A DNA stretch of 63,804 bases, filler included, from Anaerolineae bacterium (GTDB lineage: Bacteria > Chloroflexota > Anaerolineae > Epilineales > Epilineaceae), in the NCBI GenBank assembly GCA_029262755.1. It is 5 parts of 5 records of this genome, joined end to end, with 100 filler letters (N's around TTAATTAATTAA, not from the genome) between each part and the next. Parts side by side here need not be neighbours in the genome. Positions count along the whole stretch, not along the records: positions 17,665 to 43,338 come from JAJCYU010000141.1; 4 more parts are not named here. One strand, given 5' to 3'. The translations under genes and the position numbers were made by a program. Below the pieces are notes generated by a model. It was given only the letters and a program-made list of their open reading frames with translations, made no database searches and had not been told where the DNA came from. Below are positions 3,537 through 30,112 of this stretch, one piece after another. Within the stretch, counting starts at the first letter, position 1. Each line of letters starts with the position of its first letter.

Positions 3537-3598
3537 GCCGCGCGCAAGCTGGATCAGCGGTTTCCTCCCGCCGCAGCAAGAACCGAGGCCCCCCCGCC

Positions 3599-6143: not shown

Positions 6144-6178
6144 GCCGGGCCGCGGAGGACACGGTTCTTCGCCCGATC

Positions 6179-7984
6179 ATGAGTAGGATCGAGCATGTGC
6201 GGGAGCGTTTGCGCTCCGCCCGCCCGACCAGCGACGAGGCGCGGCGGCTACTAGCCCTCGGCCGACCGGAATCGCCCTCCATCGCGGCGGCGCTGGTGCT
6301 GCTCGCGGGCCAGACGGTTGCCAGCCTGTCCGTTCCGTGGCTGCTGGCGCAATTACTCGACCAGCTGATCGAGCTCGGCTTCGACTCGGTCGCCGGCGGG
6401 TTGATGACGCTCGGACGATTCACGACTGCGATCCTGGTGCTCTTTGCGGTGCGCGCGTTGCTCTCCAGCGGGCAGTCGTACCTGCTGGCACGCGCCGGTG
6501 AGCGGGTCGTGCTGCGGCTACGGCGCCGGCTCTACGCTCACCTGCTGCGCCTCGGCCCTCCGTTTTACGACCACCAGCGCGTGGGCGGGCTCGTATCGCG
6601 TATGACCGGTGACGTAGCGCGGCTCCAGGCTGCCGCGACATCCGACGTTGCCGCGGTGCTCACCGCCTCCGTCACGCTGGCCGGCGCGTTGAGCCTGCTC
6701 ATCTGGCAGAACTGGCGTCTGGCGGCACTGTTGATCCTCGTCGTGCCGCCCGTGGTGGGGCTGGCGCGCTTCAACGGACGGCGGCAACGCAAGCTGGGCG
6801 AACAGGTGCAGGACCGTCAGGCGGCCATGGCGGGCGCCGTGGAGGAGAGCCTCGGCGCGATCCGCCTGTTGCAGAGCTTCGTGCGCGAGCCCCATGCCCA
6901 AGCCCGATTCGAGGACGCATCGCGCTCGTTGATGAACGCGTCGCTCGAGCGAGCGCGGGTGGTCGCGATCTTCGGCTCATCGATCTCCTTCCTGGTCTTC
7001 GGCGCGCTCGCCGGCATCCTGTACGCGGGTGGCCGCGAGGTCATCCTCGGACGCCTCACGCCGGGCGAGCTCGTCGCGTACGTGGTCTACACGCAGATGG
7101 TCGCGACCTCGGCCGGCCAACTGGTCGGCTTGTACGGTAATTGGTCCGGGGCGCTCGGCGCGGGGCGAAAGGTCTTCCACCTGCTCGACACGCCGCCTTC
7201 CGTCGAGGATCGGCCCGCTGCGGTCGGCCTCGTCCATCCCGTAGAAGGACGGATCCGCTTCGAGGACGTGTCTTTCGCGTATGGGCGCGGGGATGCGGTG
7301 TTACACGGCATCGACTTGGACGTGGCGCCGGGCGAGACCATCGCGCTCGTGGGCCCGAGCGGCGCGGGCAAGTCCACGATGATGCATCTGGTCGCGCGCT
7401 TCTATGACCCGCAGGCCGGCCGTCTTACGCTGGACGGCCACGACCTGCGCGCGCTGCGCCTTGCGGAGCTCCGCGGGGCGATCGGCCTTGTGCCGCAAGA
7501 GACGACGCTCTTCAACGCCACCGTCGCGGAAAACCTGCGCTACGGCCGCCTTGAGGCAACCGATGCGCAGCTGCGCGCCGCCGCCGAAGCCGCCTTCGCG
7601 GCGCCCTTCATCGACGCGCTGCCCGACGGCTACGCGACCGTGGTCGGCGAGCGTGGGATCCGTCTCAGCGCCGGCGAGCGCCAGCGGATCGCGATCGCGC
7701 GGGCGTTGCTTAAAGATCCACGCATCCTGTTGCTCGATGAGGCGACGGCCAGCCTCGACAGCCGCAGCGAATCGCTCGTGCAGGCTGCGTTGGAGCGCTT
7801 GATGGCCGGTCGGACCAGCCTCGTCATCGCCCACCGATTGAGCACGGTCTACTCGGCCGACCGGATCGCGGTAGTCGAACGGGGCCGGATCGTGGAGGTC
7901 GGAAGCCACGCGGAGCTGATTGCGCGCGGCGGGCTGTACGGGCAACTGCACGCGCTGCAGTTTCGGGAGCCTGAGGCGGAGTAG
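6179..7984 (+). CDS. ABC transporter, fused permease/ATPase (MsbA-like exporter)
   Basis: N-terminal TM domain; GPSGAGKST, LSAGERQRIAIAR, ILLLDEATASLD, IAHRLST. Confidence 0.92.
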   Translation: MSRIEHVRERLRSARPTSDEARRLLALGRPESPSIAAALVLLAGQTVASLSVPWLLAQLLDQLIELGFDSVAGGLMTLGRFTTAILVLFAVRALLSSGQSYLLARAGERVVLRLRRRLYAHLLRLGPPFYDHQRVGGLVSRMTGDVARLQAAATSDVAAVLTASVTLAGALSLLIWQNWRLAALLILVVPPVVGLARFNGRRQRKLGEQVQDRQAAMAGAVEESLGAIRLLQSFVREPHAQARFEDASRSLMNASLERARVVAIFGSSISFLVFGALAGILYAGGREVILGRLTPGELVAYVVYTQMVATSAGQLVGLYGNWSGALGAGRKVFHLLDTPPSVEDRPAAVGLVHPVEGRIRFEDVSFAYGRGDAVLHGIDLDVAPGETIALVGPSGAGKSTMMHLVARFYDPQAGRLTLDGHDLRALRLAELRGAIGLVPQETTLFNATVAENLRYGRLEATDAQLRAAAEAAFAAPFIDALPDGYATVVGERGIRLSAGERQRIAIARALLKDPRILLLDEATASLDSRSESLVQAALERLMAGRTSLVIAHRLSTVYSADRIAVVERGRIVEVGSHAELIARGGLYGQLHALQFREPEAE

Positions 7985-8108
7985 CGGCGCGCTTTTCGTC
8001 CCGTGCGCCCCGCGATGTAGCGCCTTGTCGGGCGTGTCTTTCGACCACCGTGCGGGGTCTTTCGGCTGCAGGCAGCGGGGAGTGCGGGTGGAAGATGACA
8101 TCACGCTC

Positions 8109-8137
8109 TTTACCCTCGACCGAGCGCGGCATATAAT
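8109..8137 (+). promoter_or_regulatory. Putative sigma70 promoter of the rpmH operon
   Basis: TTTACC (8109-8114), 17-nt spacer, TATAAT (8132-8137); GAGGAG RBS at 8167-8172. Confidence 0.6.
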
Positions 8138-8180
8138 CCCCGTTCGCATAAAGACAGCGTTGTAGTGAGGAGCACGGTCG

Positions 8181-8330
8181 ATGAAGCGCACATGGCAACC
8201 TAAGAAGCGCAAGCGGATGCGGACGCACGGCTTTCGCAAGCGCATGGCAACGAAGAATGGCCGCTCGGTGCTCAAGCGCCGACGGGCTAAGGGGCGCAAG
8301 CGCCTCGCAGTGCAGCGCTACTCCAAGTAG
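8181..8330 (+). CDS. rpmH: 50S ribosomal protein L34 (absent from ORF track)
   Basis: [49 protein letters not shown]. Confidence 0.97.
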
Positions 8331-8331
8331 C

Positions 8332-8712
8332 TTGCGTCGCGAGCGAAGGCTTCGTCACGGCAGTGACTTTCGGCGGGTGCGGTCTCGGGGTCGATCCTGG
8401 GCGCACCCGCTGCTTGTGCTGGTTGTGGCAGCGCATCCGGACGGACCGGAGGCGATTACGCGCGTCGGCTTCGTGGCCGGCAAGCGCGTGGGCAACGCCG
8501 TGATCCGCAACAAGGCACGGCGCCGCGTACGCGAGGCCGTGCGAGCACGGTACGAGCAGCTTCCTTCTGGACGCGATCTGGTGTTGATCTTGCGATCAAG
8601 CGCTGGTGCTGCTTCCTTCGAAACCTTGGATCAAACCGTCGTGCAGTTGCTCAAGCGCGCCGGTTTGCTGGAGATACGCACCCCCGAATGCGCCGCCTCG
8701 CCCTCGGGCTGA
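8332..8712 (+). CDS. rnpA: Ribonuclease P protein component
   Basis: [36 protein letters not shown] (RNR-type motif); probable TTG start right after rpmH. Confidence 0.92.
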
Positions 8713-8897
8713 TCCGGCTTTACCAAGTCACGCTGAGCCGCGTCTTGCCCGCCTCGTGCCGCTTCACCCCGTCGTGCTCGCAGTACGGCTACGAGGCCAT
8801 TACTCGTCACGGGCTGATGCGAGGCGGCATGATGACGATCAAACGGCTGGGTCGCTGTCACCCATTCCACCCCGGTGGACACGACCCTGTTCCCTAG
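8688..8897 (+). CDS. yidD: Membrane protein insertion efficiency factor YidD
   Basis: [24 protein letters not shown]. Confidence 0.95.
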
Positions 8898-8954
8898 GGT
8901 TCGCGCGCGGCTTCTCGCGCCGTCTCCCCCAACCGACGTCCGGACCGTGTTTCG

Positions 8955-9851
8955 ATGAACCCCATCAATTGGATCGCAGACTGGGTAACCCGGCTGCTGC
9001 AGTATTTGGCCGACACCACGGAATCCTTGGTGACGCTGCCGGATAGCATCTCGTCGTGGGCCGTAGCCATCATCCTCATCGGCATCCTGGTCAAGATCGT
9101 CACGTGGCCGCTCAACGCCACCCAGATGCGCTCCATGAAGGCGATGCAGGAACTCCAGCCGCAGCTCAAGGAGATCCAGGCTGCGCACAAGGATGATCGC
9201 GAGAAGCTGGCTCAAGCGCAGATGGACCTGTACAAAGAGAATGGCGTCAACCCCTTCGGGGGCTGCTTTCCGCTCTTGATCCAAATGCCGATTCTCTTCG
9301 GCTTGTACCGCGCGATCTTCAAGCTCGGACCGCCGCCCTCCGGCACGGGCCAGCTCGTGGGCGAGCACTTCTTTTGGATCCGCGATCTGGGCGAATGTGA
9401 GCCCAGCCCTCTCTGCGACGCGGTCGGCGGCCCCTTCGGATTGCCGATCCCGATCCTCTTGATCGCGATGACCATCGCGCAGATGGCTTATCAGAAGTGG
9501 ATGACGCCCCCCTCCACCGGCGGTAGCGACACCCAAGCGCAGGCCATGCAGTCGGTGTTCAAGTGGATGCCGCTGATGTTTGCGTTCATCTTTGCTTCCC
9601 TACCCTCGGGCCTCGTGCTGTACTACACGGTCTTCACCGTCGCCAACATCGTGCAGCAGCTGACGCTGCGCCGTGGCCAGAAGTCTCCCGCCGCTCTGTC
9701 CGCCGGTGCGGAAACCGCGGACGAGAGCCCAGATACGTCGAAATCCGTCGAGCAATCGGCGCCCGCACAGGAGAAGAGATCCCATGAGCGAAGCTCGTCC
9801 CAATCCCGGAAGCAGCGGAAGCGACGGAGCAAAGACGCACGTCGAGGTTAA
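8955..9851 (+). CDS. yidC: YidC/Oxa1 membrane protein insertase (short monoderm type, basic C-tail)
   Basis: MQELQPQLKEIQ, LYKENGVNPFGGCFPLLIQMPIL, LPSGLVLYY. Confidence 0.95.
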   Translation: MNPINWIADWVTRLLQYLADTTESLVTLPDSISSWAVAIILIGILVKIVTWPLNATQMRSMKAMQELQPQLKEIQAAHKDDREKLAQAQMDLYKENGVNPFGGCFPLLIQMPILFGLYRAIFKLGPPPSGTGQLVGEHFFWIRDLGECEPSPLCDAVGGPFGLPIPILLIAMTIAQMAYQKWMTPPSTGGSDTQAQAMQSVFKWMPLMFAFIFASLPSGLVLYYTVFTVANIVQQLTLRRGQKSPAALSAGAETADESPDTSKSVEQSAPAQEKRSHERSSSQSRKQRKRRSKDARRG

Positions 9852-10860
9852 GGCGCGCACGATCGACGAGGCCATTGCGCGCGGCCTCGTTCGTCTGGGT
9901 GGCCTGTCGCGAAGCGAAGTCGAGATTACGGTGGTGAAGGAAGGCAAGGCCGGCGTGCTCGGCTTCGGCGCCGAAGAAGCGTTGGTGCGCCTCACGCCCT
10001 TGGGTCCCGGTGAAACGTCCTCCGCCGCGTCATCGGCAGCCAAGGCCGAGCCGGCGTCCGGACGCGGCGGCGACGCCGGTGAGACGGACGGCGGTCCCCG
10101 AAAGCGGCGGCGGCGACGACGGCGCGGCGGTGGTGACGAAACGCGGGAGCAGCAGCGTGCGGCCGAACCCTCCCAGCCCGCTCAGGCTGCCGCGCCCGCG
10201 CCGGCGCCTGCACGAGAGCCGGATGCACCGACCCGGCGCGAGGATCGGCCCGCACGAGAGCGCGTCGCGGCACGCACGCCGCAACCGGCTGCGCCCCGCG
10301 AGCAGGCGCCGCGAGAACAGGCGCCACGCTCCACAGCGCCCGCTCCGAAGCCTGCCGCGGACGATGCCGCCGTGTTGGAGATTGCATCCGAGGTCGTGGG
10401 CGATATGCTCGCCAAGTTGGGCTTCGAGGACGTTCGCCTCCAGCCGGAAGGCGGACTGTTGCCGGATGAGATGCAGGAGGACAGCTCGGCCGTCCTTTGC
10501 ATCCGAGGCACAGGCACGGATCGTCTGCTCGGCCGCGACGGCGAGTCCCTCCGGGCGCTGCAGTTCATCACCCGCCTCATGGTCAGCCGCCGCACGGAAC
10601 AATGGACAAACCTGCTGATCGATGTCGACGGCGACCGCCGCCGTCAGGTCAAGGAGCTGATCGCCCTGTCCCAGCAGTCGGCCGACCTGGTCGAAAGCGA
10701 CGGTCGTCCGGTCTCGTTGCCGCCGATGGGCGCCTACGAGCGCAGGGTCGTGCACATTGCACTGAAGGACCACCCGACGATCGCCACACAGAGCATCGGC
10801 AGCGGTGATCGCCGCAAGGTCACCGTTCGGCGCCGCGTTCAGCTGCTGCCGGAACTCTAG
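9784..10860 (+). CDS. jag: Jag/KhpB (EloR) RNA-binding protein, Jag_N + KH + R3H
   Basis: ARTIDEAIARGL...GVLGFG, LLGRDGESLRALQ, LPPMGAYERRVVHIAL; follows yidC. Confidence 0.9.
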   Translation: MSEARPNPGSSGSDGAKTHVEVKARTIDEAIARGLVRLGGLSRSEVEITVVKEGKAGVLGFGAEEALVRLTPLGPGETSSAASSAAKAEPASGRGGDAGETDGGPRKRRRRRRRGGGDETREQQRAAEPSQPAQAAAPAPAPAREPDAPTRREDRPARERVAARTPQPAAPREQAPREQAPRSTAPAPKPAADDAAVLEIASEVVGDMLAKLGFEDVRLQPEGGLLPDEMQEDSSAVLCIRGTGTDRLLGRDGESLRALQFITRLMVSRRTEQWTNLLIDVDGDRRRQVKELIALSQQSADLVESDGRPVSLPPMGAYERRVVHIALKDHPTIATQSIGSGDRRKVTVRRRVQLLPEL

Positions 10861-10987
10861 GCCGGCAGGTCCCCCTGACACAGAAACCGCCCAACGACGT
10901 GTCGCGACGTGACGCGAACCGGGCAGCAGCAAACGCGGCGCACGATAGCAATCGTGCGCCGCGTTGCGTTGTCGGCCGGAACTCTGC

Positions 10988-11839
10988 ATGAGCACGAAGC
11001 GATACCTGGCAGTCGGCCACGTCACCCTCGATATCGACGAATCACGGCCGGCCGAGCCAAAGCTGGGCGGAACGGTGGTGTATGCGGCGGGCACGGCGGC
11101 GCGACTCGGTTGGCAGGCGGCTGTCGCAACGCGGTCCACTCAGCGCAACGAATTGGCGTCTCTGTTGCCTGGTGTGGATATCGCCGGTCGGCCCACGCCG
11201 CGTGACACACGCTTCGCCCATTCCTACGACGCCGTGGGCAATCGTAGCCAACGCGTGCTGGACCGGGCGGCGGACATCGGCGTGGCCGACCTGCCGTCGG
11301 CCTGGCTTGATCCGGACGTTCTCCACGTCGGGCCCGTCCTCGACGAGGTGTCGGCCGCGACCGTCGCGGACGTACGGGCCTCGTTCGTCGGCCTCACCGT
11401 TCAGGGGTGGCTGCGCCACGCAGCGCAAGACGGCACGATCCACGTCCGTGCGCAGAGCGTACCGCATGCGATCCTCGCGCGCGCGGACGGCATTGTGCTC
11501 AGCGAGGAAGATTTGGCGCCCGATATGCGCGACTGGCCGCGACGAACCGTGCGCCCCGGAAGGTGGGTGGCCGTTACCGGCGGTATGAACGGAGCCACCC
11601 TCTGGATCGACGAAGCCTGCCTCCACCAGCCCGCGTTCCCCGCGGCCGCCGTCGACCCGACGGGCGCGGGCGACGTATTCGCCGCGATCCTCTTCCTTCG
11701 CATGGCGAGCGGGGCCAGCGCCCGGGAGGCGCTACGGGACGCAGCAGCCGGCGCAGCATGGAGCGTCGAGCATCGTGGACCCGACGGGCTGCCGGACGAA
11801 CGCGCGATACGGGAGGTGTGTGGGCGCGACAACGCGTAG
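10988..11839 (+). CDS. PfkB family carbohydrate kinase
   Basis: VGHVTLD, LGGTVVYAA, VDPTGAGDVFAA. Confidence 0.88.
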   Translation: MSTKRYLAVGHVTLDIDESRPAEPKLGGTVVYAAGTAARLGWQAAVATRSTQRNELASLLPGVDIAGRPTPRDTRFAHSYDAVGNRSQRVLDRAADIGVADLPSAWLDPDVLHVGPVLDEVSAATVADVRASFVGLTVQGWLRHAAQDGTIHVRAQSVPHAILARADGIVLSEEDLAPDMRDWPRRTVRPGRWVAVTGGMNGATLWIDEACLHQPAFPAAAVDPTGAGDVFAAILFLRMASGASAREALRDAAAGAAWSVEHRGPDGLPDERAIREVCGRDNA

Positions 11840-11995
11840 ACGTGGGTTAACGCTAGTGGTGGTCGGCCGAGAGTTAAGGGAACAGCCGCGTCCCGACGAC
11901 CTAGTACGGCCCCTTCCCTTTCGGCTTGGCCGGCCTTGTCGGCCCCGCTATCCTCTCCGCCCTCGTTCCGACACGCCCCGCGGAGACCCCGACGT

Positions 11996-12781
11996 ATGAC
12001 CCATGTACTGGCCATCGTCAACCAAAAGGGTGGCGTCGGCAAGACCACGACGGCCGTCAACCTCGGCGCCGCGCTCGCAGAGGCGGGTCGTCGCACCGTG
12101 GTGCTGGACTGCGATCCGCAGGCCAACGCGACCCGCTCGCTCACCCCGTTGCAGCCGGTCGAGCGCACGATCTATGACGTGCTCGTCGACGGGGTCGCCA
12201 TTGCGGATGCAATGGTGCAGACGCAGGTGGAAGGGCTCGACATCGTCCCCGCCTCGCAAGCGCTCGCCGGTGCCGAGATCGAGCTGGTCAACCTGGCCGG
12301 CCGCGAAGCACGGCTGCGCGATGCGCTCAAGGTATTGAGGCAGACGGGCGATCACGATATCGCCCTCATCGACTGCCCGCCTAGTTTGGGCCTGCTCTCG
12401 GTCAACGCCTTGGTTGCCGCGGACGGAGTCATCGTTCCGGTGCAATGCGAGTACCTGTCCCTGGAAGGTCTTGGGCATCTGGTTCGCACGCTGGAGCTGG
12501 TCCAGAAGCGTCTCAACCAGGATCTAGAGTTGACCGGACTGCTGATGACGATGTTTGATCCGCGCACGAACCTGTCGAGCCAGGTCGTGGAAGAGGTCGG
12601 CCGTCACTTTCCGCGCAAGCGCTTCCACACCGTGATCCCGCGTTCCATTCGCATGGGCGAAGCGCCGAGCTATGGGGAGCCGATCACGAGCTATGCGCCG
12701 CGTTCCCCGGGCGCCTTGGCCTACCGCGCACTCGCAGGCGAGCTGATCGGCCGTCTCGACGCACCGAACGGGCAAGCCTGA
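11996..12781 (+). CDS. parA: Chromosome partitioning ATPase ParA/Soj
   Basis: NQKGGVGKTTT, LIDCPPSLGLL, PVQCEYLSLEGL, EAPSYG. Confidence 0.96.
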   Translation: MTHVLAIVNQKGGVGKTTTAVNLGAALAEAGRRTVVLDCDPQANATRSLTPLQPVERTIYDVLVDGVAIADAMVQTQVEGLDIVPASQALAGAEIELVNLAGREARLRDALKVLRQTGDHDIALIDCPPSLGLLSVNALVAADGVIVPVQCEYLSLEGLGHLVRTLELVQKRLNQDLELTGLLMTMFDPRTNLSSQVVEEVGRHFPRKRFHTVIPRSIRMGEAPSYGEPITSYAPRSPGALAYRALAGELIGRLDAPNGQA

Positions 12782-12862
12782 GCGCTCTGCTAGGACTACG
12801 TCCTTCTTGCAGATGCGGGCACTACCGATTCACCACGATTTCGGACGAAGCGAGGCCATGTC

Positions 12863-13750
12863 ATGACCAAGCAACGACGCGGGCTGGGCCGCGGACTCGA
12901 TGCCCTACTCACCGGCACGGAGTCATCGACCGGTGAAGAGCGGGCCGCGCCGACGGGCACGACACGCACCGTGCCCGTTGCCTCGATTCAGGCGAACCCC
13001 TATCAGCCGCGGAAGGATTTCGACGAGGATCAGCTCGCGGAGCTCGCGGCGTCCATTCGCGTCCACGGCCTGATCCAGCCGCTGATCGTCAAGCCCGAAG
13101 GCGACGGCTGGACCCTCATCGCCGGCGAGCGACGCCTACGGGCCTCGCAGCTGGCGGGACTCGACGAAGTGCCCGTCGTCGAACGCGAGGCCGACCCGCA
13201 GCAGATGTTGGCCGTCGCGATCATCGAGAACGTACAGCGTGCGGACCTCGATCCGCTCGAGTCCGCCACGGCCTATCGACGCCTGATGGATGAGTTCGGC
13301 CTCACGCAAGCGGAGGTCGCAAAGCTGGTAGGCAAGTCGCGCGCGGCCATCGCGAATACCGTACGCTTGCTGGGCCTGTCGGAGGACGTACGCGCCCTCG
13401 TTGCGGCCGGACATTTGAGCGAAGGGCTCGCGCGCCCACTCCTGACACTTCCATCGGACGAAGCACAGCTCGCGATGGCGCAACGCGCAATCCGTGAAGG
13501 CTGGACGGCACGGCAGGTCGAGGCGGCGGTCCGCGCCTTCATGGCGCCCGCCGATGCCGATCCCTCCGAGGCCGTTGGCGCATCGAAGGCCGGCAGTGAC
13601 CCCAATACCGTCGCGGCCGCTCGCGCTCTGGAAGATCATCTGGGCACGCGGGTCGACATTCATCGGAAGGGCGCCGGGGGCTCGGTCGTGGTGCACTTCT
13701 ATTCGGAAGAGGAATTGTCGAGCCTCTATGATCGCCTGATCGGTACGTAG
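12863..13750 (+). CDS. parB: Chromosome partitioning protein ParB/Spo0J
   Basis: RGLGRGLDALL, NPYQPRKDF, IAGERRLRA, ENVQRADL, HTH GKSRAAIANTVRLL. Confidence 0.96.
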   Translation: MTKQRRGLGRGLDALLTGTESSTGEERAAPTGTTRTVPVASIQANPYQPRKDFDEDQLAELAASIRVHGLIQPLIVKPEGDGWTLIAGERRLRASQLAGLDEVPVVEREADPQQMLAVAIIENVQRADLDPLESATAYRRLMDEFGLTQAEVAKLVGKSRAAIANTVRLLGLSEDVRALVAAGHLSEGLARPLLTLPSDEAQLAMAQRAIREGWTARQVEAAVRAFMAPADADPSEAVGASKAGSDPNTVAAARALEDHLGTRVDIHRKGAGGSVVVHFYSEEELSSLYDRLIGT

Positions 13751-13869
13751 GCGGCCCTGCCGAACGCACACCCGGCTACGACACCTGCCCTGCCGAGCGG
13801 TTGTGTTGCGCAAAGCCGGCCCTCCGCGTTGTCTTCCTCTACCGGAATCATCGGCCCGCCGTGAAGGAG

Positions 13870-13885
13870 TGTTTCACGTGAAGCA
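13870..13885. promoter_or_regulatory. parS centromere-like site
   Basis: TGTTTCACGTGAAGCA, 15/16 match to the palindrome TGTTTCACGTGAAACA, 120 bp after parB. Confidence 0.8.
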
Positions 13886-14750
13886 ATCCGAGCACCGGAT
13901 CTGCGACTACGAGGGCAGCCCCTACCGCCGCGTCTTCTGGGAAGAGGCGGATCGAAGCTACGAGGACCAGGCCGAACGTCTTGTTCTTCGCGCTCTTTTG
14001 CCGCAGCAAGGCCGTCGCATCGTGGAAATTGGTGCCGGCTTCGGGCGTCTTGTGGATGAGTATCGAGGCTACGATCAGGTTATCTTGCTCGACTACGCCC
14101 GTAGCATGCTCACCGATGCGCGTGAACGCCTTGGTGACGCCTACACCTATGTGTGCGCGGACCTCTATCGCCTGCCCTTCGCGGACCAATCTCTGGACAC
14201 GGTGACGCAGATCCGCGTCCTGCATCACGTAGAGCATATCGAAGACGCCTTCGATGAGGTCGCACGCAGCCTCTGCGCCGGCGGCTCCTACGTCCTCGAG
14301 TTCGCGAACAAGCGCAATGCGAAGGCGATTGCCCGCAAGCTCACCGGAGCACAGGACACGGATCCCTTCTCCGAAGAGCCTTTGGAATTCGTCGAGTTGA
14401 ATTGGAATTTCCATCCCCGGCACGTTGAACGGGCTCTACGCGCATCGGGCCTGGAACCGCGAGAGCGCCGTGCTGCGTCTCACTTCCGCATCCCCGCCTT
14501 GAAGCGGATGGTGCCGGCAGCGGCGCTCGCCCGCATCGACTCGCTCCTCGGCGCTCCCCTTGCGCCGCTCGCCCCCTCGCCCAGCCAGTTCGTGCGCTCG
14601 GCGCGCCTAACGGGCGGCGCGCTCAACCGCATGCAATGGCGCTGCCTGGCCTGTGGTCACGGGGCATTGAACGAAGAGACGGCAGGTCTGCGCTGCCCCG
14701 AATGCGACCATCTCTGGCCCTTGATCGACGGCGTGTATCAGTTCCGTTGA
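13878..14750 (+). CDS. Class I SAM-dependent methyltransferase with C-terminal Trm112-like zinc ribbon
   Basis: IVEIGAGFGR motif I, DLYRLPFADQSLD; C-terminal CLAC...CPEC..WPLIDGVY; AAGGAG 8 nt before GTG. Confidence 0.85.
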   Translation: MKQSEHRICDYEGSPYRRVFWEEADRSYEDQAERLVLRALLPQQGRRIVEIGAGFGRLVDEYRGYDQVILLDYARSMLTDARERLGDAYTYVCADLYRLPFADQSLDTVTQIRVLHHVEHIEDAFDEVARSLCAGGSYVLEFANKRNAKAIARKLTGAQDTDPFSEEPLEFVELNWNFHPRHVERALRASGLEPRERRAASHFRIPALKRMVPAAALARIDSLLGAPLAPLAPSPSQFVRSARLTGGALNRMQWRCLACGHGALNEETAGLRCPECDHLWPLIDGVYQFR

Positions 14751-14835
14751 TCGACCTCCGGAGTGACGCGTCTTCTACATCTCGTGGCGTTGCGGCCACT
14801 CCCCACACTACATGTTGATTCCACGGGCTAGCCCG

Positions 14836-14864
14836 TTGCTATCGCCTAGGCCCTGACCTATACT
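14836..14864 (+). promoter_or_regulatory. Putative sigma70 promoter of dnaN
   Basis: TTGCTA (14836-14841), 17-nt spacer, TATACT (14859-14864). Confidence 0.6.
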
Positions 14865-14948
14865 CGCCCGGACCGCGCGTGGATCCCGATCCCGCGTCGC
14901 GATCGACCGTCTCGGGCGGGCTACAGCCCCCCGCATGTGGAGGCTGCC

Positions 14949-16085
14949 ATGAAGGTCTCGTGCCCGCAGGACGCCCTGGCGCGCGGTCTCGCCACCGTGC
15001 AACGCGCCGTGGCAACGCGTAGCACGCTGCCGATCCTGTCCAACATCCTGCTCGAAACCGAGGAGGATCGGCTCAAGATGTCGGCCACCAATCTCGAGAT
15101 CGGGATCAGCTGTTGGATCGACGCCACCGTGCGCAGCCCGGGCTCCACCACGGTGCCCGCGCGACTGCTCTCCGACTTCGTCAATTCTCTGCCCGAGGGC
15201 CAAGTCGACATGGACCTCAACGGGCGCAACCACACCCTGAAGCTCAGCTGCGACCGGTACAAGGCGGATATTCGCGGCATCAGCGCCGACGACTTTCCGC
15301 TGCTGCCTACCGTGGACGAAGGCGTGCGCTTCTCTCTCGATCCCATCGAGATGCGCTCGATGATCTCCCAAGCCATCATCTCCTCGGCGCATGATGACGC
15401 GCGCCCCATCTTGACCGGTGTCCTGATGGTTGCCGATCCGGACCTCGGCAAGCTCACGCTCGCCGCCGCGGACGGCTTCCGCTTGTCCGTGCGCGACGGA
15501 GAGCTCGACGCACCGATCGACGGGCGCGTCAGCATCATCATCCCCGCACGTGCCCTGGCCGAGTTGCAGCGCGTCGCCAACGACGAGGATGACCGCATCG
15601 ACGTCGCGATCACGCCCAACCGCAATCAGGTCCTCTTTCAACTGCGGGACGTCGATATCGTTTCGCAGCTGATCGAGGGCAGCTTCCCCGACTACGAAAA
15701 GATCGTGCCGCCGTCCTACACCACACGGGTCGTCGTGAACACGAAGGCGTTGCATTCCGCCGTGCGCATCGCCAGCTTCTTCGCGCGGGACGCGGCCAAC
15801 GTCATCCGGATTCGGATCGACGCCGGCGACGAGCTGGGAGGCACCCTGACCGTCACGGCGCAGGCCGCCGAGATCGGCGGGAACGAGAGCGAGATCGAGG
15901 CATCGGTGGAAGGCGAAGGGCTTGAGGTCGCGTTCAACGCCAAGTACTTGCTCGACGTACTGAACGTCGTCGGCAGCGAACAAGCGGCGTTGGAATTGAG
16001 CGGTGCTTCGAGTCCGGGTGTCATCAAGCCGGTGAACGATACGCCCTTCACGCACGTCATCATGCCGATGCATATCGCGCGTTGA
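14949..16085 (+). CDS. dnaN: DNA polymerase III beta sliding clamp
   Basis: STLPILSNILL, ATNLEIGI, ARPILTGV, AADGFRL, LIEGSFPDY, AFNAKYLLD, VIMPM. Confidence 0.97.
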   Translation: MKVSCPQDALARGLATVQRAVATRSTLPILSNILLETEEDRLKMSATNLEIGISCWIDATVRSPGSTTVPARLLSDFVNSLPEGQVDMDLNGRNHTLKLSCDRYKADIRGISADDFPLLPTVDEGVRFSLDPIEMRSMISQAIISSAHDDARPILTGVLMVADPDLGKLTLAAADGFRLSVRDGELDAPIDGRVSIIIPARALAELQRVANDEDDRIDVAITPNRNQVLFQLRDVDIVSQLIEGSFPDYEKIVPPSYTTRVVVNTKALHSAVRIASFFARDAANVIRIRIDAGDELGGTLTVTAQAAEIGGNESEIEASVEGEGLEVAFNAKYLLDVLNVVGSEQAALELSGASSPGVIKPVNDTPFTHVIMPMHIAR

Positions 16086-16157
16086 CGTCGAGCGGCGCGA
16101 TGTCCCTTGTGCCTCGATTGTCGCGGTGACCACCGCCCAACCCTATAATCGCCGGCC

Positions 16158-17462
16158 GTGTACCTCCGACGGCTGACCCTAGAGCACTTTCGCTGCTACG
16201 CGCGGCTCGACCTCACGCTTCCGTGTGAGACCGTGGTCATCGCGGGCCCCAACGCGCAGGGAAAAACGAGCCTCCTCGAGGCCGCGTATTTGCTCGCGAC
16301 CACGCGCGCCCCGTACAGCGTTCCCGACCGCCAGCTGATCCGGTGGGCCGCGCTGGAGGAAGAGGTCCTGCCCTTCGCCCGGGTCCGCGGCGAGATCGCC
16401 ATGGCGTCCGGTAGCCGTACCATCGAGATCCTTACCCTCCGTCAGCCAGGGGAGGGCCGAGAGCAGGTCACGAAGCGCGCGCGTGTCGATGAGGTGCCGC
16501 GGCGCGCGATGGACGTCCTCGGCCAACTCAATGTGGTCCTCTTCACACCCCGCGACGTCGAGATCGTGGCGGGCGGCCCGGTCGAACGGCGCCGCTACCT
16601 GGACGGCCTTCTCTGCCAGGTGGATCGCCACTACTGCCGCACGCTCGCCCGCTACAACCGGATCCTCGGTCAGCGGAACCATCTCCTGCGCGGTCTTCGA
16701 GATCGCCGCGGAGAACGCGGCGGGCAACGCGAAGAACTGGCCGTATGGGATACGCGCCTCGCCGAAGACGGTGCTCACCTGCTGCTGCGCCGGCATGCGC
16801 TGCTCGCGCGTCTCGAGCCCATCGTCTCCGAGATCCACGCCTCGCTCGCCGGTGAGCCCTTGGTCACCCGCTATCACGACAGCCTCTCGGAGGCTGAACC
16901 CACCCCGTCCCCCGAGGACCGACAACCCGACACCGGCGATCCGCTGCCGCCCGGAGTCGCCCCGGTCTCCGCCACGGCACCGTCCGCCAAGGAGCAATCA
17001 GCCCGCTTCGAAGCGGTCCTTCGTGCCCGACATGACGAGGAGATTCGGCGCGGACAAACCGCCGTCGGGCCACACCGCGACGACCTCTCGTTCACGGTGA
17101 ACGACGTCGACATGCGCAGCTACGGCTCGCGGGGCCAGCAGCGAACCGTCACCCTCGCACTGAAGCTCGCCGAAGCACGGTTGATGTGGACCCTTACCGG
17201 CGAGCGCCCCGTCCTCTTGCTGGACGACGTCCTCGGCGAGCTCGACGGGCAACGCCGGGCGCAGCTGCTCGCCCACATCGACGGGCGACAGCAGGTGCTG
17301 GTCACCACGACGGACGCCGATACGCTCCCACCCGACTTCGCGGGCGACGCCCTCGTCCTCCACGTGCTCGACGGCGCGATCCAACGCGCGACCCGCGGCG
17401 GCGTTGCGGTCACGGTGCCGACGCACGATGGCTCCTCCCCCGAAGCCGTGCCCGCCGGCTGA
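16158..17462 (+). CDS. recF: DNA replication/repair protein RecF
   Basis: GPNAQGKTSLLEA, GPHRDD, GSRGQQR, VLLLDDVLGELD. Confidence 0.95.
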   Translation: MYLRRLTLEHFRCYARLDLTLPCETVVIAGPNAQGKTSLLEAAYLLATTRAPYSVPDRQLIRWAALEEEVLPFARVRGEIAMASGSRTIEILTLRQPGEGREQVTKRARVDEVPRRAMDVLGQLNVVLFTPRDVEIVAGGPVERRRYLDGLLCQVDRHYCRTLARYNRILGQRNHLLRGLRDRRGERGGQREELAVWDTRLAEDGAHLLLRRHALLARLEPIVSEIHASLAGEPLVTRYHDSLSEAEPTPSPEDRQPDTGDPLPPGVAPVSATAPSAKEQSARFEAVLRARHDEEIRRGQTAVGPHRDDLSFTVNDVDMRSYGSRGQQRTVTLALKLAEARLMWTLTGERPVLLLDDVLGELDGQRRAQLLAHIDGRQQVLVTTTDADTLPPDFAGDALVLHVLDGAIQRATRGGVAVTVPTHDGSSPEAVPAG

Positions 17463-17564
17463 GCTACAACGCCGGCAACGACGCCGGCTACGTCCGCCAG
17501 CCTCGCGACCGGCTGTCCGAGGCACACTTCGAGCCACCCATCCGGCGAGAGCTTCGACGGCTTC

Positions 17565-17664
17565 NNNNNNNNNNNNNNNNNNNNNNNNNNNNNNNNNNNN
17601 NNNNNNNNTTAATTAATTAANNNNNNNNNNNNNNNNNNNNNNNNNNNNNNNNNNNNNNNNNNNN
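17565..17664. other. Artificial contig linker (N44-TTAATTAATTAA-N44)
   Basis: N runs flanking a six-frame stop linker. Confidence 0.99.
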
Positions 17665-24835: not shown

Positions 24836-25669
24836 ATGCGCGACAAGTCCCGCTCCAAACGCCGTATTCTACGCCGACCCAAGAACGGCGGCCCGCGACC
24901 GGACGGCATCATCATCAAGACGCCCGCCCAGATCGAAGCCATGGCGCGTTCCGGCCGCCTCGTTGCCGACTGCTTCGCGCTGTTGGGCGATGCGATCCAA
25001 CCCGGCATCCGCTTGGACGAGCTTGACGAGCGCGTCGAGGCGCTCATCGCAGAGCGCGGCGCGTTGCCGCTATACAAGGGCTATCAGGGCAGCCCGCCAA
25101 GCCATCCGCCCTTCCCCGGCGTGATCTGCGCGTCGGTGAACGAGGAGGTCTGCCACGGAATCCCCGGACCCCGCGCCCTCGAGGAGGGCGACATCGTCGG
25201 CATCGACATCGGTTTGCGCTACGAGGGCTGGTGCGGCGACTCGTGCGTGACCTTCCCCGTCGGCAAGGTCTCCACCGAGGCCGATCACCTGCTGACGATC
25301 ACGCGTGAGTGCATGGAGCGCGGCATCCGGATGGCCCGCGCGGGCAACCGTCTCGGCGACCTCGGCCACGCGATCCAGCGCCACGCCGAGCGCAACGACT
25401 GCAGCGTGGTTCGCGTGTGGGGCGGCCATGGCATCGGGGAGAGCCTGCACGAGCCACCCTCCGTGTCGCATACGGGGGAACGCGGTCAGGGCTTGCTGCT
25501 GGAGGAGGGCATGGTCTTCACGATCGAGCCCATGATCAACGCCGGCGCGCACGAGTGGGAGATCCTCGACGACGGATGGACCGTGGTCACGTGCGACGGC
25601 GCCCTCTCGGCGCAGTTCGAGCACACGATTGCGATCACGCCCCACGGCCCGCGGATCCTCTCTGCCTAA
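24836..25669 (+). CDS. map: Type I methionine aminopeptidase
   Basis: CASVNEEVCHGIP, GDIVGIDIG, GHGIG..LHEPP, FTIEPMIN, SAQFEHTI. Confidence 0.95.
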   Translation: MRDKSRSKRRILRRPKNGGPRPDGIIIKTPAQIEAMARSGRLVADCFALLGDAIQPGIRLDELDERVEALIAERGALPLYKGYQGSPPSHPPFPGVICASVNEEVCHGIPGPRALEEGDIVGIDIGLRYEGWCGDSCVTFPVGKVSTEADHLLTITRECMERGIRMARAGNRLGDLGHAIQRHAERNDCSVVRVWGGHGIGESLHEPPSVSHTGERGQGLLLEEGMVFTIEPMINAGAHEWEILDDGWTVVTCDGALSAQFEHTIAITPHGPRILSA

Positions 25670-25932
25670 AGGCTGTGCGGGGAGTCGAGCGTCGGCGCGT
25701 CGCACGACGTTCTCGACGCAGGCGTGCCGAGCTCGCAGCCTCCCTCGCCGCATCCTACTGGCTCGATCGAAGGGGGCCGGGTCGATCATACGGGTCCGGT
25801 CGCCCGACCTGTGTTCCCGTGCGGACCTACCGTAACGATATCTCGATCGCAGCGCTCGTGCTGCGGCGCTTCGACTCGATGATCGGCCAGTCCCGTGTTT
25901 CGCGCTGCGTCGCCCTATGCTACCCTGGCGCT

Positions 25933-26113
25933 CGGCGCTCGCGGGGCGCCGCCCGTCCGCGGAAAGGGACACAGTCCCACCCGCCTTCGCTGTATGCGAA
26001 GCACCCATGTGTGACTTCCTTCTCGTACTTGGTCCAGCCCGTGCCAACAGGCCGGCCGATGTACGAAGCCCGAACGGTGCGGACGCCGGGCTACGCGGCC
26101 GAAGGAGGCTCGC
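25933..26113 (+). ncRNA. Candidate structured cis-regulatory leader RNA of the ankyrin gene
   Basis: Five local hairpins, a long-range CGTCCGC/GCGGACG pairing and an anti-SD CTTCCTTC complementary to GAAGGAGG; extended -10-like TGCTACCCT at 25918-25926. Confidence 0.5.
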
Positions 26114-27847
26114 ATGTCCCAGGATGCCATCCCTGCCTCGACCCCGGAGCGCTCGCTCCCGCCCCGCCCCAACCTCGATCGCCTGAAGGACGAGGCGCGT
26201 CGCAGACAGCGCGACGGCGAGTTCGCCGTCCGAGCCGACGCCCTGTTCGCGATTGCACGAGAGCACGGTTTCTCGAGCTGGCCGGCGCTCAAGGTCCATG
26301 TCGAGGCCATGCGCACCGCCGCATCCGACCGGCTCGACGTCCTGCTCGACGCCGTCGTTCCGCGCCCGACCACCGATCATCGCGGCGGCTCGCTGCAGCG
26401 TGTCGACGCGCTCCTGGCGGTCGATCCCGGCCTGGCCGGCGCGAGCATCGCCGCTGCCGCGGCCACCGGTGACACCTCCGCCGTCGCATCGTTCGTCGGC
26501 CGGGACCCGGCCCTAGCCGCCCAACCGAGCGGCCCTCGCGCGTGGCCTCCGCTGCTGTATGCGTGCTTCTCGCGCGTTCTTCAGCACCATCCGGAGAGGC
26601 AGCCTGACTTCGACACCGTCGTCGCGCTGCTACTTGCTGCGGGCGCGGACGCAAACGCGAGCTTCCACAATCCCGAGGACCCGGTGGGCACCGAAACGGC
26701 CTTGTACGGTGCTTCCTCCGTGGTGCGCAGTCCTTCGATCACGCGTCGTCTGCTCGAGGCCGGTGCAAGCGCAGACGACGAAGAGGTCGCCTATCACGTG
26801 CCGGCCCACCCCCCTTGTCTGGCGGTGTGGCTGGATCACGCGCCACCAGCGAAGCTGCTGACCACGGCCCTGCTGCGCACCCTGGACTTTGATGACATCG
26901 CGGCTACACGTCTGGTTCTGGCCCGCGGCGGCGATCCCGCGGCCGCGGGCATTTGGTCCGGGCGCACCGCGTTACACATGGCTGTCGACCGCTGGAAGTC
27001 CATGGAGTTCACCGAACTCCTGTTGGCCCATGGCGCGGACCCCAACAAGGCGGATCTGCACGGCGTGACCCCCTACGCCCTCGCCATGCGCCTCGGCCGC
27101 AGCGACATCGCGGCCCGCCTGCGCGAGGCTGGTGCGCGCGATGAGCTGGCACCGCGCGACCGCTACGTGGCCGCATGTGCCGCTGGGGACCGCGCGGCGG
27201 CAGACGCGATACTCGCCGCGGACCCCACGTTGCGCGACTCCCTGCGCATCGCCGACCACTGGGTCCTGGCCGAAGCCGCCAAGGCCGGCCGCCTCGACGC
27301 GGTTGCGCTCATGCTCGACATGGGCTTCGACCTGCGCCAGGGCCAGCACGGATACACCCCGCTCCATTGGGCGGCCTTCCACGGCCACAGCGCGGTCGTC
27401 GAGCTCCTGCTGGAGCGCGGCGCCGATCCGTCGCTGCGGGACCCGCACTATCACAGCGCCGCCTGGGGCTGGGCCGAACACTCGGGCCACGAAGCCCTCG
27501 GCATCCGCTTGCTGCGCGCCGGCGCCGAGCGGGGAAGTCTGATCGCGGCCGTGGCGCTGGACGACGGCGAGCGCGTGGATGCGCTCTTGGCCGCGGATCC
27601 CGCGGCGGCGGCGCGGAGCGACGGCTGGCTGTCCCCGTTGCACGTCGCGGCCGCGATGGGCCGTTTAGCGCTGATGGAGCGCCTCGTCGCGGCAGGCGCG
27701 GTGCTCGACGCTCCCGGCGGCGACGGGATGACGCCGCTGGAGCGCGCGCTCGATCAGGGCCAGGACGAGGCGGCGGCGTGGTTGCGCGCTCGGGGGGCGG
27801 CAGAGCCGAGGGTGCCGATTGCGGGGGCCGAGAAGGGGCAAGGTTGA
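26114..27847 (+). CDS. Ankyrin-repeat protein with small N-terminal helical domain
   Basis: N-terminal SLPPRPNLDRLKDEARR...AIAREHGFSSWPALKVHVE; ankyrin repeats GRTALHMA, GYTPLHWAAFHGH, SPLHVAAAMG. Confidence 0.9.
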   Translation: MSQDAIPASTPERSLPPRPNLDRLKDEARRRQRDGEFAVRADALFAIAREHGFSSWPALKVHVEAMRTAASDRLDVLLDAVVPRPTTDHRGGSLQRVDALLAVDPGLAGASIAAAAATGDTSAVASFVGRDPALAAQPSGPRAWPPLLYACFSRVLQHHPERQPDFDTVVALLLAAGADANASFHNPEDPVGTETALYGASSVVRSPSITRRLLEAGASADDEEVAYHVPAHPPCLAVWLDHAPPAKLLTTALLRTLDFDDIAATRLVLARGGDPAAAGIWSGRTALHMAVDRWKSMEFTELLLAHGADPNKADLHGVTPYALAMRLGRSDIAARLREAGARDELAPRDRYVAACAAGDRAAADAILAADPTLRDSLRIADHWVLAEAAKAGRLDAVALMLDMGFDLRQGQHGYTPLHWAAFHGHSAVVELLLERGADPSLRDPHYHSAAWGWAEHSGHEALGIRLLRAGAERGSLIAAVALDDGERVDALLAADPAAAARSDGWLSPLHVAAAMGRLALMERLVAAGAVLDAPGGDGMTPLERALDQGQDEAAAWLRARGAAEPRVPIAGAEKGQG

Positions 27848-27927: not shown

Positions 27928-28422
27928 ATGCCGATTGCCAACCCCTTCAGCCGCTTCCTGCGCACCCGCCTGGCGGACGCCGTGACCTCCGGATCCTCCG
28001 GAATCGGCGTCGCGGGCGACACGGATTCCCGCGAGGACTCCGCTGCGCCCGTCACCGGCGTTGCGCGGGAGACCGCCGAGCTCGAAGCCTTCGCCCGCTA
28101 CTGGGACGACGTCGAGACGCTGATCATCCAGGTGTACCGACGGCCCGGTGCACGGCGTGCGGATCGGCGCGATTGGCTATTGCTACGCGAGGACTTCGAA
28201 GCGATGTACGCCGCCGTCGCAGACACGCTCGAGCCTCATTGGCGGGGCGTGCTGGCCGGTGGCGCACCGTTGAACGCGGACCCGTTTCGCTCGTTGTTGG
28301 ACGCGGAATCCGCCCGCGCCTTCGCGGACGACTGGAACGCAATGCAGCGACTGCCCGCCGCACGTGAGGCGCTCAACCGAAGGCTGCTCGCTCTCAGCAC
28401 GCTCGTGGAGGGCAGGACCTAG
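27928..28422 (+). CDS. Hypothetical protein
   Basis: Clean ORF filling the gap; Trp-containing helical C-half (WNAMQRLPAAREALNR). Confidence 0.7.
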   Translation: MPIANPFSRFLRTRLADAVTSGSSGIGVAGDTDSREDSAAPVTGVARETAELEAFARYWDDVETLIIQVYRRPGARRADRRDWLLLREDFEAMYAAVADTLEPHWRGVLAGGAPLNADPFRSLLDAESARAFADDWNAMQRLPAAREALNRRLLALSTLVEGRT

Positions 28423-28603: not shown

Positions 28604-30112
28604 ATGACCATCGACCTGAACCGGCCGTCCTCGAACGGCAGCCCGGCTGCGCTCGCCTCGTCCCCAACGCCGCAATCCGAGACGGACTCGGCAGCCGCGA
28701 CAACCGCGGCAGCCACGACAGCCGCGCCGACCGATCTCGACCCGGCGGACCTCCTCGCGCGCTTTCGCAGCGTGCGCGCCCTCACCGAGCATCTGTGCGA
28801 GCCGCTCGAGGTCGAGGACTACGTTATCCAAACGATGCCGGATGTCAGTCCCGCCAAGTGGCATCTCGCGCACACGACGTGGTTCTTCGAGACCTTCCTG
28901 CTTCAGGCGCACGCCTCTGGCTACGAGGTACTGCATCCGATGTACAACTACCTCTTCAACTCCTACTACAACGCGGTCGGCTACCGGCATTGTCGCCCGA
29001 AGCGCGGCCTGATCTCGCGCCCGACGGTGGCCGAGATCTATGACTATCGCCGTTATGTCGATCAACATGTCGAGCAATTCGTCGAAGAGGTCGATCCCGC
29101 TACCTGGGCCGCGGCCGCATCCGTGCTCGAGCTCGGCCTGCACCACGAGCAGCAGCACCAAGAGCTGATGCTCATGGACCTCAAGCACGTATTCAGCGAG
29201 AACCCGCTGTTCCCCGCGTATCGTGAGCGAGACACGGTCGAGAAGACGAGGAGCGTGAACAACGCCCCGTCGGCGCCGACCGCCCTGCGTTGGATCGACC
29301 ATCCGGGCGGCATCTCGTGGACCGGGCACGCCGACGACGATCCCGGCTTTCACTTCGACAACGAAGGTCCGCGGCACCGCGTCTGGCTCGAGCCCTTCTC
29401 GATCGCTTCGCGAATGGTGACCAACGCCGAATACCTGGCCTTCATCGCCGACGGCGGCTACGAGCGGCCCGAGCTGTGGCTGTCCCTCGGCTGGGACTGG
29501 GCTCAGCGCGAAGGCTGGACAGCGCCGCTGTACTGGCAGGATCACGGAGCGGGCGCGGGCACAGATACAGGCTCGTTCGCGGATACGGGCACGGCCACGG
29601 AACGGGACGCCCCGTCCGCGGATATCGCCGATTGGAAGCTGATGACCTTGGCCGGCGTGCTCGCGCTCGATCCGGAAGAGCCCGTCGTCCACCTCAGCTA
29701 CTTCGAGGCCGATGCCTACGCTACGTGGGCGGGCGCGCGGCTGCCGACCGAGCATGAATGGGAAGCCGTGGCGGCGGAGCGGCCGATCCGCGGCAACCTC
29801 GTCGAGTCCGGCCGCTACCATCCCGCCGCGACCCCGGCCCCGGCCGAGGCGCGAACATCGGACGACGTCCAGCAGCTTTTCGGCGAGGCATGGGAGTGGA
29901 CGGCAAGCGCATACGCGCCCTATCCCGGATATCGTCCCGCGGAGGGCGCGCTCGGCGAATACAACGGCAAGTTCATGAGCAACCAATACGTGCTACGCGG
30001 CGGTTCGTGCGCGACGTCGCATAGCCACCTACGCGCCACCTATCGCAACTTCTTCCCACCGGACGCTCGGTGGCCTTTCACCGGCCTGCGCCTGGCCAAG
30101 GACGCCGGTTGA
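28604..30112 (+). CDS. egtB: Ergothioneine sulfoxide synthase EgtB (type II-like)
   Basis: SPAKWHLAHTTWFFE, NSYY, HHEQQHQEL iron ligands, FGE-sulfatase domain, GEYNGKFM. Confidence 0.93.
   Translation: MTIDLNRPSSNGSPAALASSPTPQSETDSAAATTAAATTAAPTDLDPADLLARFRSVRALTEHLCEPLEVEDYVIQTMPDVSPAKWHLAHTTWFFETFLLQAHASGYEVLHPMYNYLFNSYYNAVGYRHCRPKRGLISRPTVAEIYDYRRYVDQHVEQFVEEVDPATWAAAASVLELGLHHEQQHQELMLMDLKHVFSENPLFPAYRERDTVEKTRSVNNAPSAPTALRWIDHPGGISWTGHADDDPGFHFDNEGPRHRVWLEPFSIASRMVTNAEYLAFIADGGYERPELWLSLGWDWAQREGWTAPLYWQDHGAGAGTDTGSFADTGTATERDAPSADIADWKLMTLAGVLALDPEEPVVHLSYFEADAYATWAGARLPTEHEWEAVAAERPIRGNLVESGRYHPAATPAPAEARTSDDVQQLFGEAWEWTASAYAPYPGYRPAEGALGEYNGKFMSNQYVLRGGSCATSHSHLRATYRNFFPPDARWPFTGLRLAKDAG

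Follow-up and report, generated by a model that had tools for sequence, protein, structure and literature searches.

What lies in the 442-nt gap that separates a gene for a methionine aminopeptidase (Peptidase_M24; end at 25669) from an ankyrin-repeat protein gene in an Anaerolineae bacterium (Epilineales, Epilineaceae; assembly GCA_029262755.1), and does it belong with the protein encoded downstream? The window, here and below, is the whole stretch of DNA analyzed, 63,804 nucleotides made of five parts of this genome joined with filler letters. An earlier note on it had described a structured leader RNA able to sequester the Shine-Dalgarno (SD) sequence, coupled to a small helical N-terminal domain (the module) of the ankyrin protein. 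We found that positions 25918 to 26116 are the promoter and 5′ leader of the ankyrin gene, a family member carrying an extra inserted hairpin, and that this family is very probably a conserved cis-regulatory RNA coupled to the module.

A 40%-identical orthologue of the protein was present in only two of 41 related genomes (G001 and G011, of the same family). The regions upstream of both genes shared several blocks with the window, conserved far better than the proteins: a hairpin, the core GUCCGCGGAAAGGGA-N-UCCCACC, a pyrimidine-rich anti-SD strand and a CCCG/CGGG hairpin with a GCGGAC loop, followed by the SD. A covariance model (R1) built solely from these two orthologue leaders recovered the leader of the window (41.5 bits, E value of 2.4e-7) as the only good match in its own genome. 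Among 35 genomes of the order, the leader was found in three (the window's own, G001, and G011), and an R1 match of 31 bits in G034 was treated as doubtful, with the conserved core missing from its alignment.

A pattern of 20 core bases, scanned over contigs with one genome per species, found at least 120 loci, while fewer than 10 chance matches are expected in random sequence by our own estimate. The counts on 113 to 120 relatives given below and the alignments A3 and A6 rest on the pattern matches listed from these loci. Among the matches listed, about 10 phyla are represented, with Acidobacteriota in the majority, together with Gemmatimonadota, Planctomycetota, Myxococcota, Gammaproteobacteria, and Spirochaetia, as well as Latescibacterota, Verrucomicrobiota, Actinomycetota, Eisenbacteria, and Chloroflexota; the cultured carriers among them are three strains, two Acidobacteriaceae isolates and one Terriglobus strain. 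The spread is patchy, with matches at an E value of ≤1e-4 in at least 14 of the 61 genomes of one acidobacterial family, a lower bound given the strict filters applied.

The elements follow a shared order along the leader. Its 5′ half starts with a −10 box, continues with the hairpin P1, whose loop holds the 5′ strand of a first pseudoknot (PK1), then the 5′ strand of a second pseudoknot (PK2) and a GGAAA junction, and ends with the hairpin P2. The 3′ half is composed of the 3′ strand of PK1, a variable hairpin (P3), the anti-SD strand, the hairpin P4, whose loop contains the 3′ strand of PK2, and finally the SD and AUG. The two pseudoknots are interlocked, with the P1 loop pairing behind P2 and the strand between P1 and P2 pairing with the P4 loop. 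Since P4 stacks on the helix that pairs the pyrimidine-rich strand with the SD, the ribosome-binding site is buried in the fully folded, conserved form; in the minimum-free-energy fold of the window, the anti-SD strand covers the AUG as well as the SD. At the position of P3, relatives have a hairpin-capable segment that cannot be aligned. A 44-nt insertion between the anti-SD strand and P4 splits the match of the window to the covariance model R2 in two (25932 to 26016, with 45.1 bits and an E value of 1.6e-10, and P4 at 26068 to 26093) and creates a three-way junction between the anti-SD helix and P4, leaving the topology unchanged.

Covariation supports P1, PK1, PK2, P2, P4, and the anti-SD:SD helix. 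We used two structure-blind MAFFT alignments, A3, with 116 rows (two of them a chance match and a truncated copy), and A6, with 76 non-redundant rows hand-picked from those 116 plus G001 and the second leader copy of contig L126. The proportion of paired cells was 83.3% in A3 and 81.7% in A6, compared with 40 to 51% when the partners were slid. None of 500 shuffles reached any of five measures in A6, and in A3 none reached four of them, while the fifth (further pair types) was reached by 20 of 500; such counts are not probabilities, because the sequences are related and thus not independent. Because P2 and one half of PK2 are fixed by the pattern, we turned to copies that model R2 had found. 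In 12 of these, mostly outside the pattern, 83.8% of the cells pair (38 to 51% when slid), with both sides changed in 23 of 37 pairs. An alignment fitted to R1 (A4) was left out of the pair counts, its anti-SD region being visibly misaligned.

The changes are distributed over the individual helices. In PK1, the pair adjoining the invariant GG:CC is CG in 44 of the 76 copies in A6, AU in 10, GC in 4, UA in 3, UG in 2, and other in 13, and the set of 12 copies has AU (8) or GC (3) and CG (7) or AU (2). PK2 reads C-GUCCGC:GCGGAC-G in the window versus G-GUCCGC:GCGGAC-C in the orthologues, and copies outside the pattern contain AUCCGC:GCGGAU twice and ACCCGC:GCGGGU once. The fourth pair of P2 is CG in six, AU in five, and UG in one of the 12 copies, GGGA/UCCC alternating with GGGC/GCCC, and the fifth pair is UA in 34 and CG in 13 of the 76. 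P4 has 94.5% of its cells paired in the 76 copies and 100% in the 12, where four of its five pairs are changed on both sides.

P1 and the anti-SD helix were tested sequence by sequence because MAFFT aligns both in shifted registers (L091 and L036 were dropped from the P1 test, and also L041 from the duplex test). A 4-bp P1 stem could be formed by 101 of 114 listed leaders, against a mean of 45.8 (maximum of 60) over 200 shuffles of the 3′ arms among sequences, and the stem types (4 to 5 bp across the family) include GCAA/UUGC, GCGC/GCGC, GCAC/GUGC, and GCUU/AAGC. Anti-SD:SD duplexes in 113 listed leaders had a mean energy of −13.27 kcal/mol with their own partners, −10.07 kcal/mol with swapped partners (standard deviation of the means, 0.19), and −7.94 kcal/mol when shuffled. 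As an alternative partner of the P1 loop, we considered the coding CCUG (Leu-Pro codons) and rejected it, since by eye no covariation with the loop was seen in the AAGG/CCUU class.

At its 5′ end, the family also keeps a constant spacing from a putative promoter. In 90 of 113 listed relatives, TAnnnT begins 32 to 35 nt ahead of the UCCGCGG core (at −35 in the window), and TGnTAnnnT lies 35 to 37 nt ahead of the core in 58 of the 113. With a −10 box at such a fixed distance, the RNA would start about at P1, and the transcript start is probably located a few bases before it. A generic sigma-70 promoter and terminator scan of 25600 to 26200 gave nothing, and the ca. 245 nt between the aminopeptidase stop codon and the −10 box (25672 to 25917) had no recognized feature in the consensus promoter, terminator, and Rfam scans.

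Taken alone, the window would be only mildly unusual. Its nested minimum free energy of −98.9 kcal/mol (z = −2.24) is equaled by 4 of 200 shuffles, and by our own arithmetic chance would yield about one 7-nt complement in a GC-rich stretch of 180 nt. It is the conservation and compensatory change in relatives that place this leader above chance. The features are collected in Table 1.

Table 1. Features of the leader and the gene that follows it, in window coordinates
Feature	Position	Strand	Basis or remark
Extended −10-like box TGCTACCCT	25918..25926	+	Positional conservation only; includes TACCCT at −35 from the core
P1 hairpin	Stem 25934-25938 with 25946-25950, loop 25939-25945	+	Partner-swap test
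PK1 5′ strand GCGGG, 3′ part of P1 loop	25941..25945	+	Pairs with 25980-25984
PK2 5′ strand CGUCCGC	25954..25960	+	Pairs with P4 loop, 26079-26085
Conserved junction GGAAA, PK2 to P2	25961..25965	+	In 10/12 copies aligned with model R2, a set where the core pattern was not imposed on most rows
P2 hairpin GGGAC-ACA-GUCCC	25966..25978	+	Covarying pairs
PK1 3′ strand CCCGC	25980..25984	+	Partner of 25941-25945
P3 hairpin (CTTCGC/GCGAAG), variable in sequence and length	25985..26001	+	Counterpart in relatives cannot be aligned
Anti-SD/anti-start strand CAUGUGUGACUUCCUUC (contains CTTCCTTC, 26015-26022)	26006..26022	+	Pairs with 26101-26116 in the minimum-free-energy fold
Inserted hairpin TCGTAC/GTACGA, between anti-SD strand and P4, lineage specific	26023..26066	+	Absent from 76/76 aligned relatives
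P4 hairpin AGCCCG/CGGGCU, loop GCGGACG 26079-26085	26067..26092	+	Loop is the PK2 3′ strand
Shine-Dalgarno GAAGGAGG (26101-26108) and start codon (26114-26116)	26101..26116	+	Both within the sequestering helix
N-terminal module coding region (LPPRPNLDRLKDEARR ... AIAREHGFSSWPALKVHVE)	26114..26310	+	Profile and predicted fold
Ankyrin-repeat protein gene, 577 aa	26114..27847	+	Downstream of the leader; Pfam Ank_2 at 2.8e-33

The hairpins and complements listed in the earlier note were all read directly in place, from the −10-like box and the GGCGCTC/GGGCGCC hairpin (25934 to 25950), through GGGAC/GTCCC, CTTCGC/GCGAAG, CTTCCTTC, TCGTAC/GTACGA, and AGCCCG/CGGGCT, to GAAGGAGG and the ATG, and its proposal of a structured SD-sequestering leader is borne out by the covariation and the anti-SD:SD duplex controls. 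The exact complementarity between CGTCCGC and GCGGACG, which it took for a pseudoknot or an alternative fold, corresponds to PK2, a real pseudoknot that covaries in the orthologues. Other elements had to be reinterpreted. GGCGCTC/GGGCGCC holds as a stem of 4 to 5 bp, the 3′ part of its loop pairing instead in PK1, which had gone unseen. One of the two anti-SD segments proposed, CTTCCTTC, stands, whereas CCTTCG (25984 to 25989) is the 5′ arm of the variable P3. The TCGTAC/GTACGA hairpin is present as an insertion and not as a feature of the family.

The contig of the ankyrin gene (window positions 17665 to 43338) is one of 428 in an assembly that is 84% complete, and the other window positions (1 to 17664 and 43339 to 63804) are N or belong off this contig. 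The protein passes the Pfam ankyrin cutoffs widely (Ank_2, 114.8 versus 27.3 bits; Ank, 87.5 versus 21.1 bits), and no second copy of its module was found in the window's own genome (best other match, E value of 0.2). Two reading frames lie 3′ of the gene, one of 164 aa (27928 to 28422) without a Pfam match and one (28604 to 30112) that is EgtB-like, with DinB_2 and FGE-sulfatase domains.

What the leader accompanies across genomes is the start of the protein. At an E value of ≤1e-3, its initial 74 residues have matches in 993 protein clusters (proteins of 62 to 795 aa), mostly at the N terminus and sometimes in tandem, and a profile of the module matches within 400 nt downstream of 116 of the 120 listed pattern loci, with a median E value of 2e-24. 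The four loci lacking it are two contig ends, one chance pattern match without a match to the RNA model, and one copy limited to the 5′ half. In five well-assembled genomes, all 14 R2 matches directly precede a frame coding for the module, with one to four copies per genome, and 14 of the 17 module genes in them carry the leader. The other three have modules that are divergent or internal and lack the LPxxP start: one is an ankyrin protein with a divergent module, right after another gene, another is a leucine-rich-repeat protein with two divergent tandem modules, and the third is described below. The earlier note had proposed that leader and module travel together, and these counts bear it out. 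The RNA is thus confined to leaders of module genes, as expected of an autoregulatory leader, and, judging from these sequences, it is tied to the module, especially to the canonical LPxxPNLExLKKQAK start, rather than to the ankyrin repeats. Among 31 downstream proteins, the C termini were ankyrin in 24, Clp_N in 5, and without a family match in 2, with no enzyme or transporter seen.

The third leaderless gene (L175:1069-1716, minus strand) is a fusion to a bleomycin-binding-like glyoxalase that starts directly at PNLENLKKQAK. Considering this fusion along with the Clp_N, ankyrin, and leucine-rich-repeat partners, binding domains of any sort seem to be what the module is joined to. Some modules resemble the N-terminal part (positions ca. 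5 to 107) of Pfam family PF20066 (Glyoxalase_8), with scores of 29.9 (L040), 27.1 (L077), 25.0 (L110), and 22.6 bits (L041) against a cutoff of 23.7 bits; the protein of the window gave no PF20066 match at an E value of ≤0.01 and has no glyoxalase domain, although by profile it contains the same module. Structure prediction from an alignment of relatives makes the module a three-helix bundle, with a predicted local distance difference test (pLDDT) score of 81. A search of the ESM Atlas returned three unnamed clusters at 0.85, a score at the level of a lead only, and in scans against NCBIfam and PADLOC nothing appeared beyond generic similarities to ankyrin or Clp_N, which scored far under the cutoffs.

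Several individual copies depart from the common arrangement. On a Gemmatimonadaceae contig, two leaders are located back to back within 625 bp (L126:56-187 on the minus strand and L126:277-410 on the plus strand), each facing its own module gene, and the minus-strand copy has GGGC/GCCC as P2. Two acidobacterial contigs have either an intact leader with ATT in place of the expected start codon (L066) or a one-base frameshift early in the module (L055), and both could be pseudogenes or long-read assembly errors. The copy at L036:1977-2067 consists of the 5′ half only (P1, the pseudoknot strands, and P2), without P4, SD, or module gene, and looks like a truncated remnant.

How might such a leader work? 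The folded form would keep translation off, and something would then stabilize or melt the fold. We tentatively favor, at somewhat less than even chances, feedback by the gene's own product: the three-helix module encoded by every downstream gene would bind its own leader and exert negative feedback, possibly with a preference for acting in cis, since the module emerges ahead of the rest of the protein and close to its own 5′ leader. The choice is motivated by the strict tie to one domain across changing architectures, as is usual for autoregulated leaders, by products that are binding scaffolds and neither enzymes nor transporters, and by a folded state that corresponds to off, which suits negative feedback. 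A fuller version, which we hold a little more tentatively still, is that leader and module are one portable, co-inherited RNA-protein unit, in which the nascent module would bind its own double pseudoknot and stop further initiation, possibly cotranslationally and in cis, the cassette having been fused to ankyrin or Clp_N domains and spread over about 10 phyla. If true, the module would add a new fold to those that bind RNA, and leader and module together would make up a new autoregulatory ribonucleoprotein system; we see a substantial chance that the pair is such a unit.

A number of observations weigh against this proposal. Searches with the module fold were uninformative, both with Foldseek against the PDB (best E value of 0.44) and in a wide VIA search (best Z of 4.0, to ion-channel and other helical fragments), and a sequence search of the PDB with the module returned only a designed protein (E value of 0.02). 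The net charge of the module is only about +2 by our own count on the sequence of the window. On the RNA side, most aligned loci were selected by a pattern with 20 core bases fixed, so that conservation at those bases in A3 and A6 exists by construction, and kinship among the sequences makes the shuffle counts overstate significance. Nested folding of 20 relatives was ordinary (z from +0.71 to −2.40), as was that of the two orthologue leaders (0.62 and −0.37). Among the ways of being refuted that the earlier note had offered were a lack of covariation in homologs and a folding energy no better than that of shuffles; the covariation is clear, while in the relatives the energies come close to the second outcome. 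Ordinary energies are to be expected when the key contacts are pseudoknots, which nested-only folding cannot see, and the anti-SD:SD helix does appear in most of the 20 minimum-free-energy folds. Finally, association with a single gene family is known for true riboswitches too, and several validated classes were for a long time mere motifs linked to a single gene family.

The likeliest alternative is an orphan riboswitch, which we regard as somewhat unlikely. Here P1, PK1, P2, PK2, and P4 would form an aptamer for a small molecule or ion whose binding stabilizes P4, PK2, and the SD helix, giving an OFF switch, and the module proteins would act in the biology of the ligand. The compact multihelix fold with near-invariant unpaired GGAAA and ACC and an integrated SD-sequestering platform suits a riboswitch, a complex conserved core fits a sensor of an unknown ligand equally well, and computationally the leader has the generic attributes of one, a covarying structured 5′ domain and an expression platform in the anti-SD:SD helix that encloses P4. 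The family is found in many phyla, with one to four copies per genome before paralogous genes, and the fold and PDB sequence searches gave no evidence for binding of the RNA by the module. However, all 130 testable instances precede the same module and never a transporter or enzyme gene, ankyrin and Clp_N binding scaffolds are poorly suited to metabolite homeostasis by an OFF switch, and neither a terminator nor any other alternative expression platform showed up among the aligned leaders.

Less likely again is that the leader is read by something else (a temperature or physical cue, a global RNA-binding protein, a small RNA, a helicase, or ribosome standby) and that its co-occurrence with the module reflects an ancestral leader kept by one transferred and shuffled gene family. 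The burial of SD and AUG is the only functional feature readable from the sequence, and the patchy distribution, both in the acidobacterial family and in the order of the window, would fit an accessory transferred gene with its own leader. On the other hand, neither a plain thermometer nor a generic protein site would call for two pseudoknots that covary and some 25 near-invariant bases preserved over about 10 phyla, and the leader is kept when C-terminal domains are exchanged and lost in the three genes in which the N-terminal module has diverged. A DNA-level site (operator, recombination site, or cassette boundary) or an unrecognized small coding sequence is very improbable, in spite of a palindromic hexamer in the core and an element that always moves with the gene start, because the compensatory pairs are strand specific and of RNA type, G-U included, across six helices, the orientation to the gene and the distance from the −10 box are fixed, and no conserved reading frame appears in the alignments by our own reading.

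Whatever its effector, the leader belongs to an apparently uncatalogued RNA family of a known sort, the structured cis-regulatory leader. Scanning Rfam 15 (4,227 models) with window positions 25000 to 27000 at an E value of ≤10 returned only a spurious mir-632 on the minus strand within the coding region. The same scan of 20 canonical relatives at an E value of ≤1 gave only miRNA-like matches to an unrelated hairpin in L120 and one M23 RNA (E value of 0.9; 23.3 bits against a gathering score of 41.2), in accordance with the statement of the earlier note that it recognized no riboswitch class here. Full-text literature searches and term look-ups in the main texts of the RNA-discovery papers PMC8632094, PMC5737381, and bioRxiv 10.64898/2026.10.21.760802 turned up nothing that describes such a leader ahead of ankyrin or Clp_N genes, although the supplementary motif lists of these papers could hold it.

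Few structured leaders are conserved across many phyla and contain two covarying pseudoknots, and Rfam already lists most of the known ones, unlike the present one. This element occurs in soil-dominant and poorly studied phyla (Acidobacteriota, Gemmatimonadota, Planctomycetota, Latescibacterota, Chloroflexota, and others), where it would control a family of ankyrin and Clp_N scaffolds marked by an uncharacterized module of about a thousand protein clusters. Both outcomes are of interest, be it a new ligand for a riboswitch or a new domain that binds RNA and exerts feedback control, and either effector would be an experimental handle on what the module proteins respond to.

Among known systems are orphan leader motifs that take their names from the domain downstream, some of which have since proved to be riboswitches; the DUF1646 motif reportedly became the Na+ riboswitch (PMC9337991), and another example is the nadA motif of Acidobacteria (PMC6859854). 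Our leader resembles both in being a comparative-genomics find that is linked to a single gene family and frequent in Acidobacteriota and other soil phyla. It differs from them in being absent from Rfam 15 and in that the associated unit is an N-terminal domain across architectures, not a whole gene family with a defined biochemical role. SAM-II, preQ1-II, and similar pseudoknot riboswitches bury the SD sequence, and they share with this leader the 5′ position, a hairpin-loop pseudoknot contiguous with SD sequestration, and conserved unpaired bases beside conserved helices. The leader of the window has, in contrast, two interlocked pseudoknots and a separate anti-SD helix, it precedes genes for binding scaffolds, and no Rfam riboswitch model matches it or the 20 canonical relatives at the thresholds given above. 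The S15 and L20 leaders are pseudoknotted and autoregulatory, their proteins being established RNA binders and the leaders mimicking rRNA sites. As in those cases, a structured leader is found here only before one protein family and its fold takes in the ribosome-binding site, in keeping with negative feedback, whereas the candidate binder is an uncharacterized three-helix module, fused to varying domains, for which the searches detected no relative of known function. Lastly, the hepatitis delta virus (HDV)-like ribozymes are nested double-pseudoknot RNAs and, like this leader, have two interleaved pseudoknots in ca. 100 nt. The order of strands is different, no Rfam ribozyme is matched, and, unlike in those ribozymes, the 3′ part of the leader is an SD-sequestering helix, which points to control of translation.

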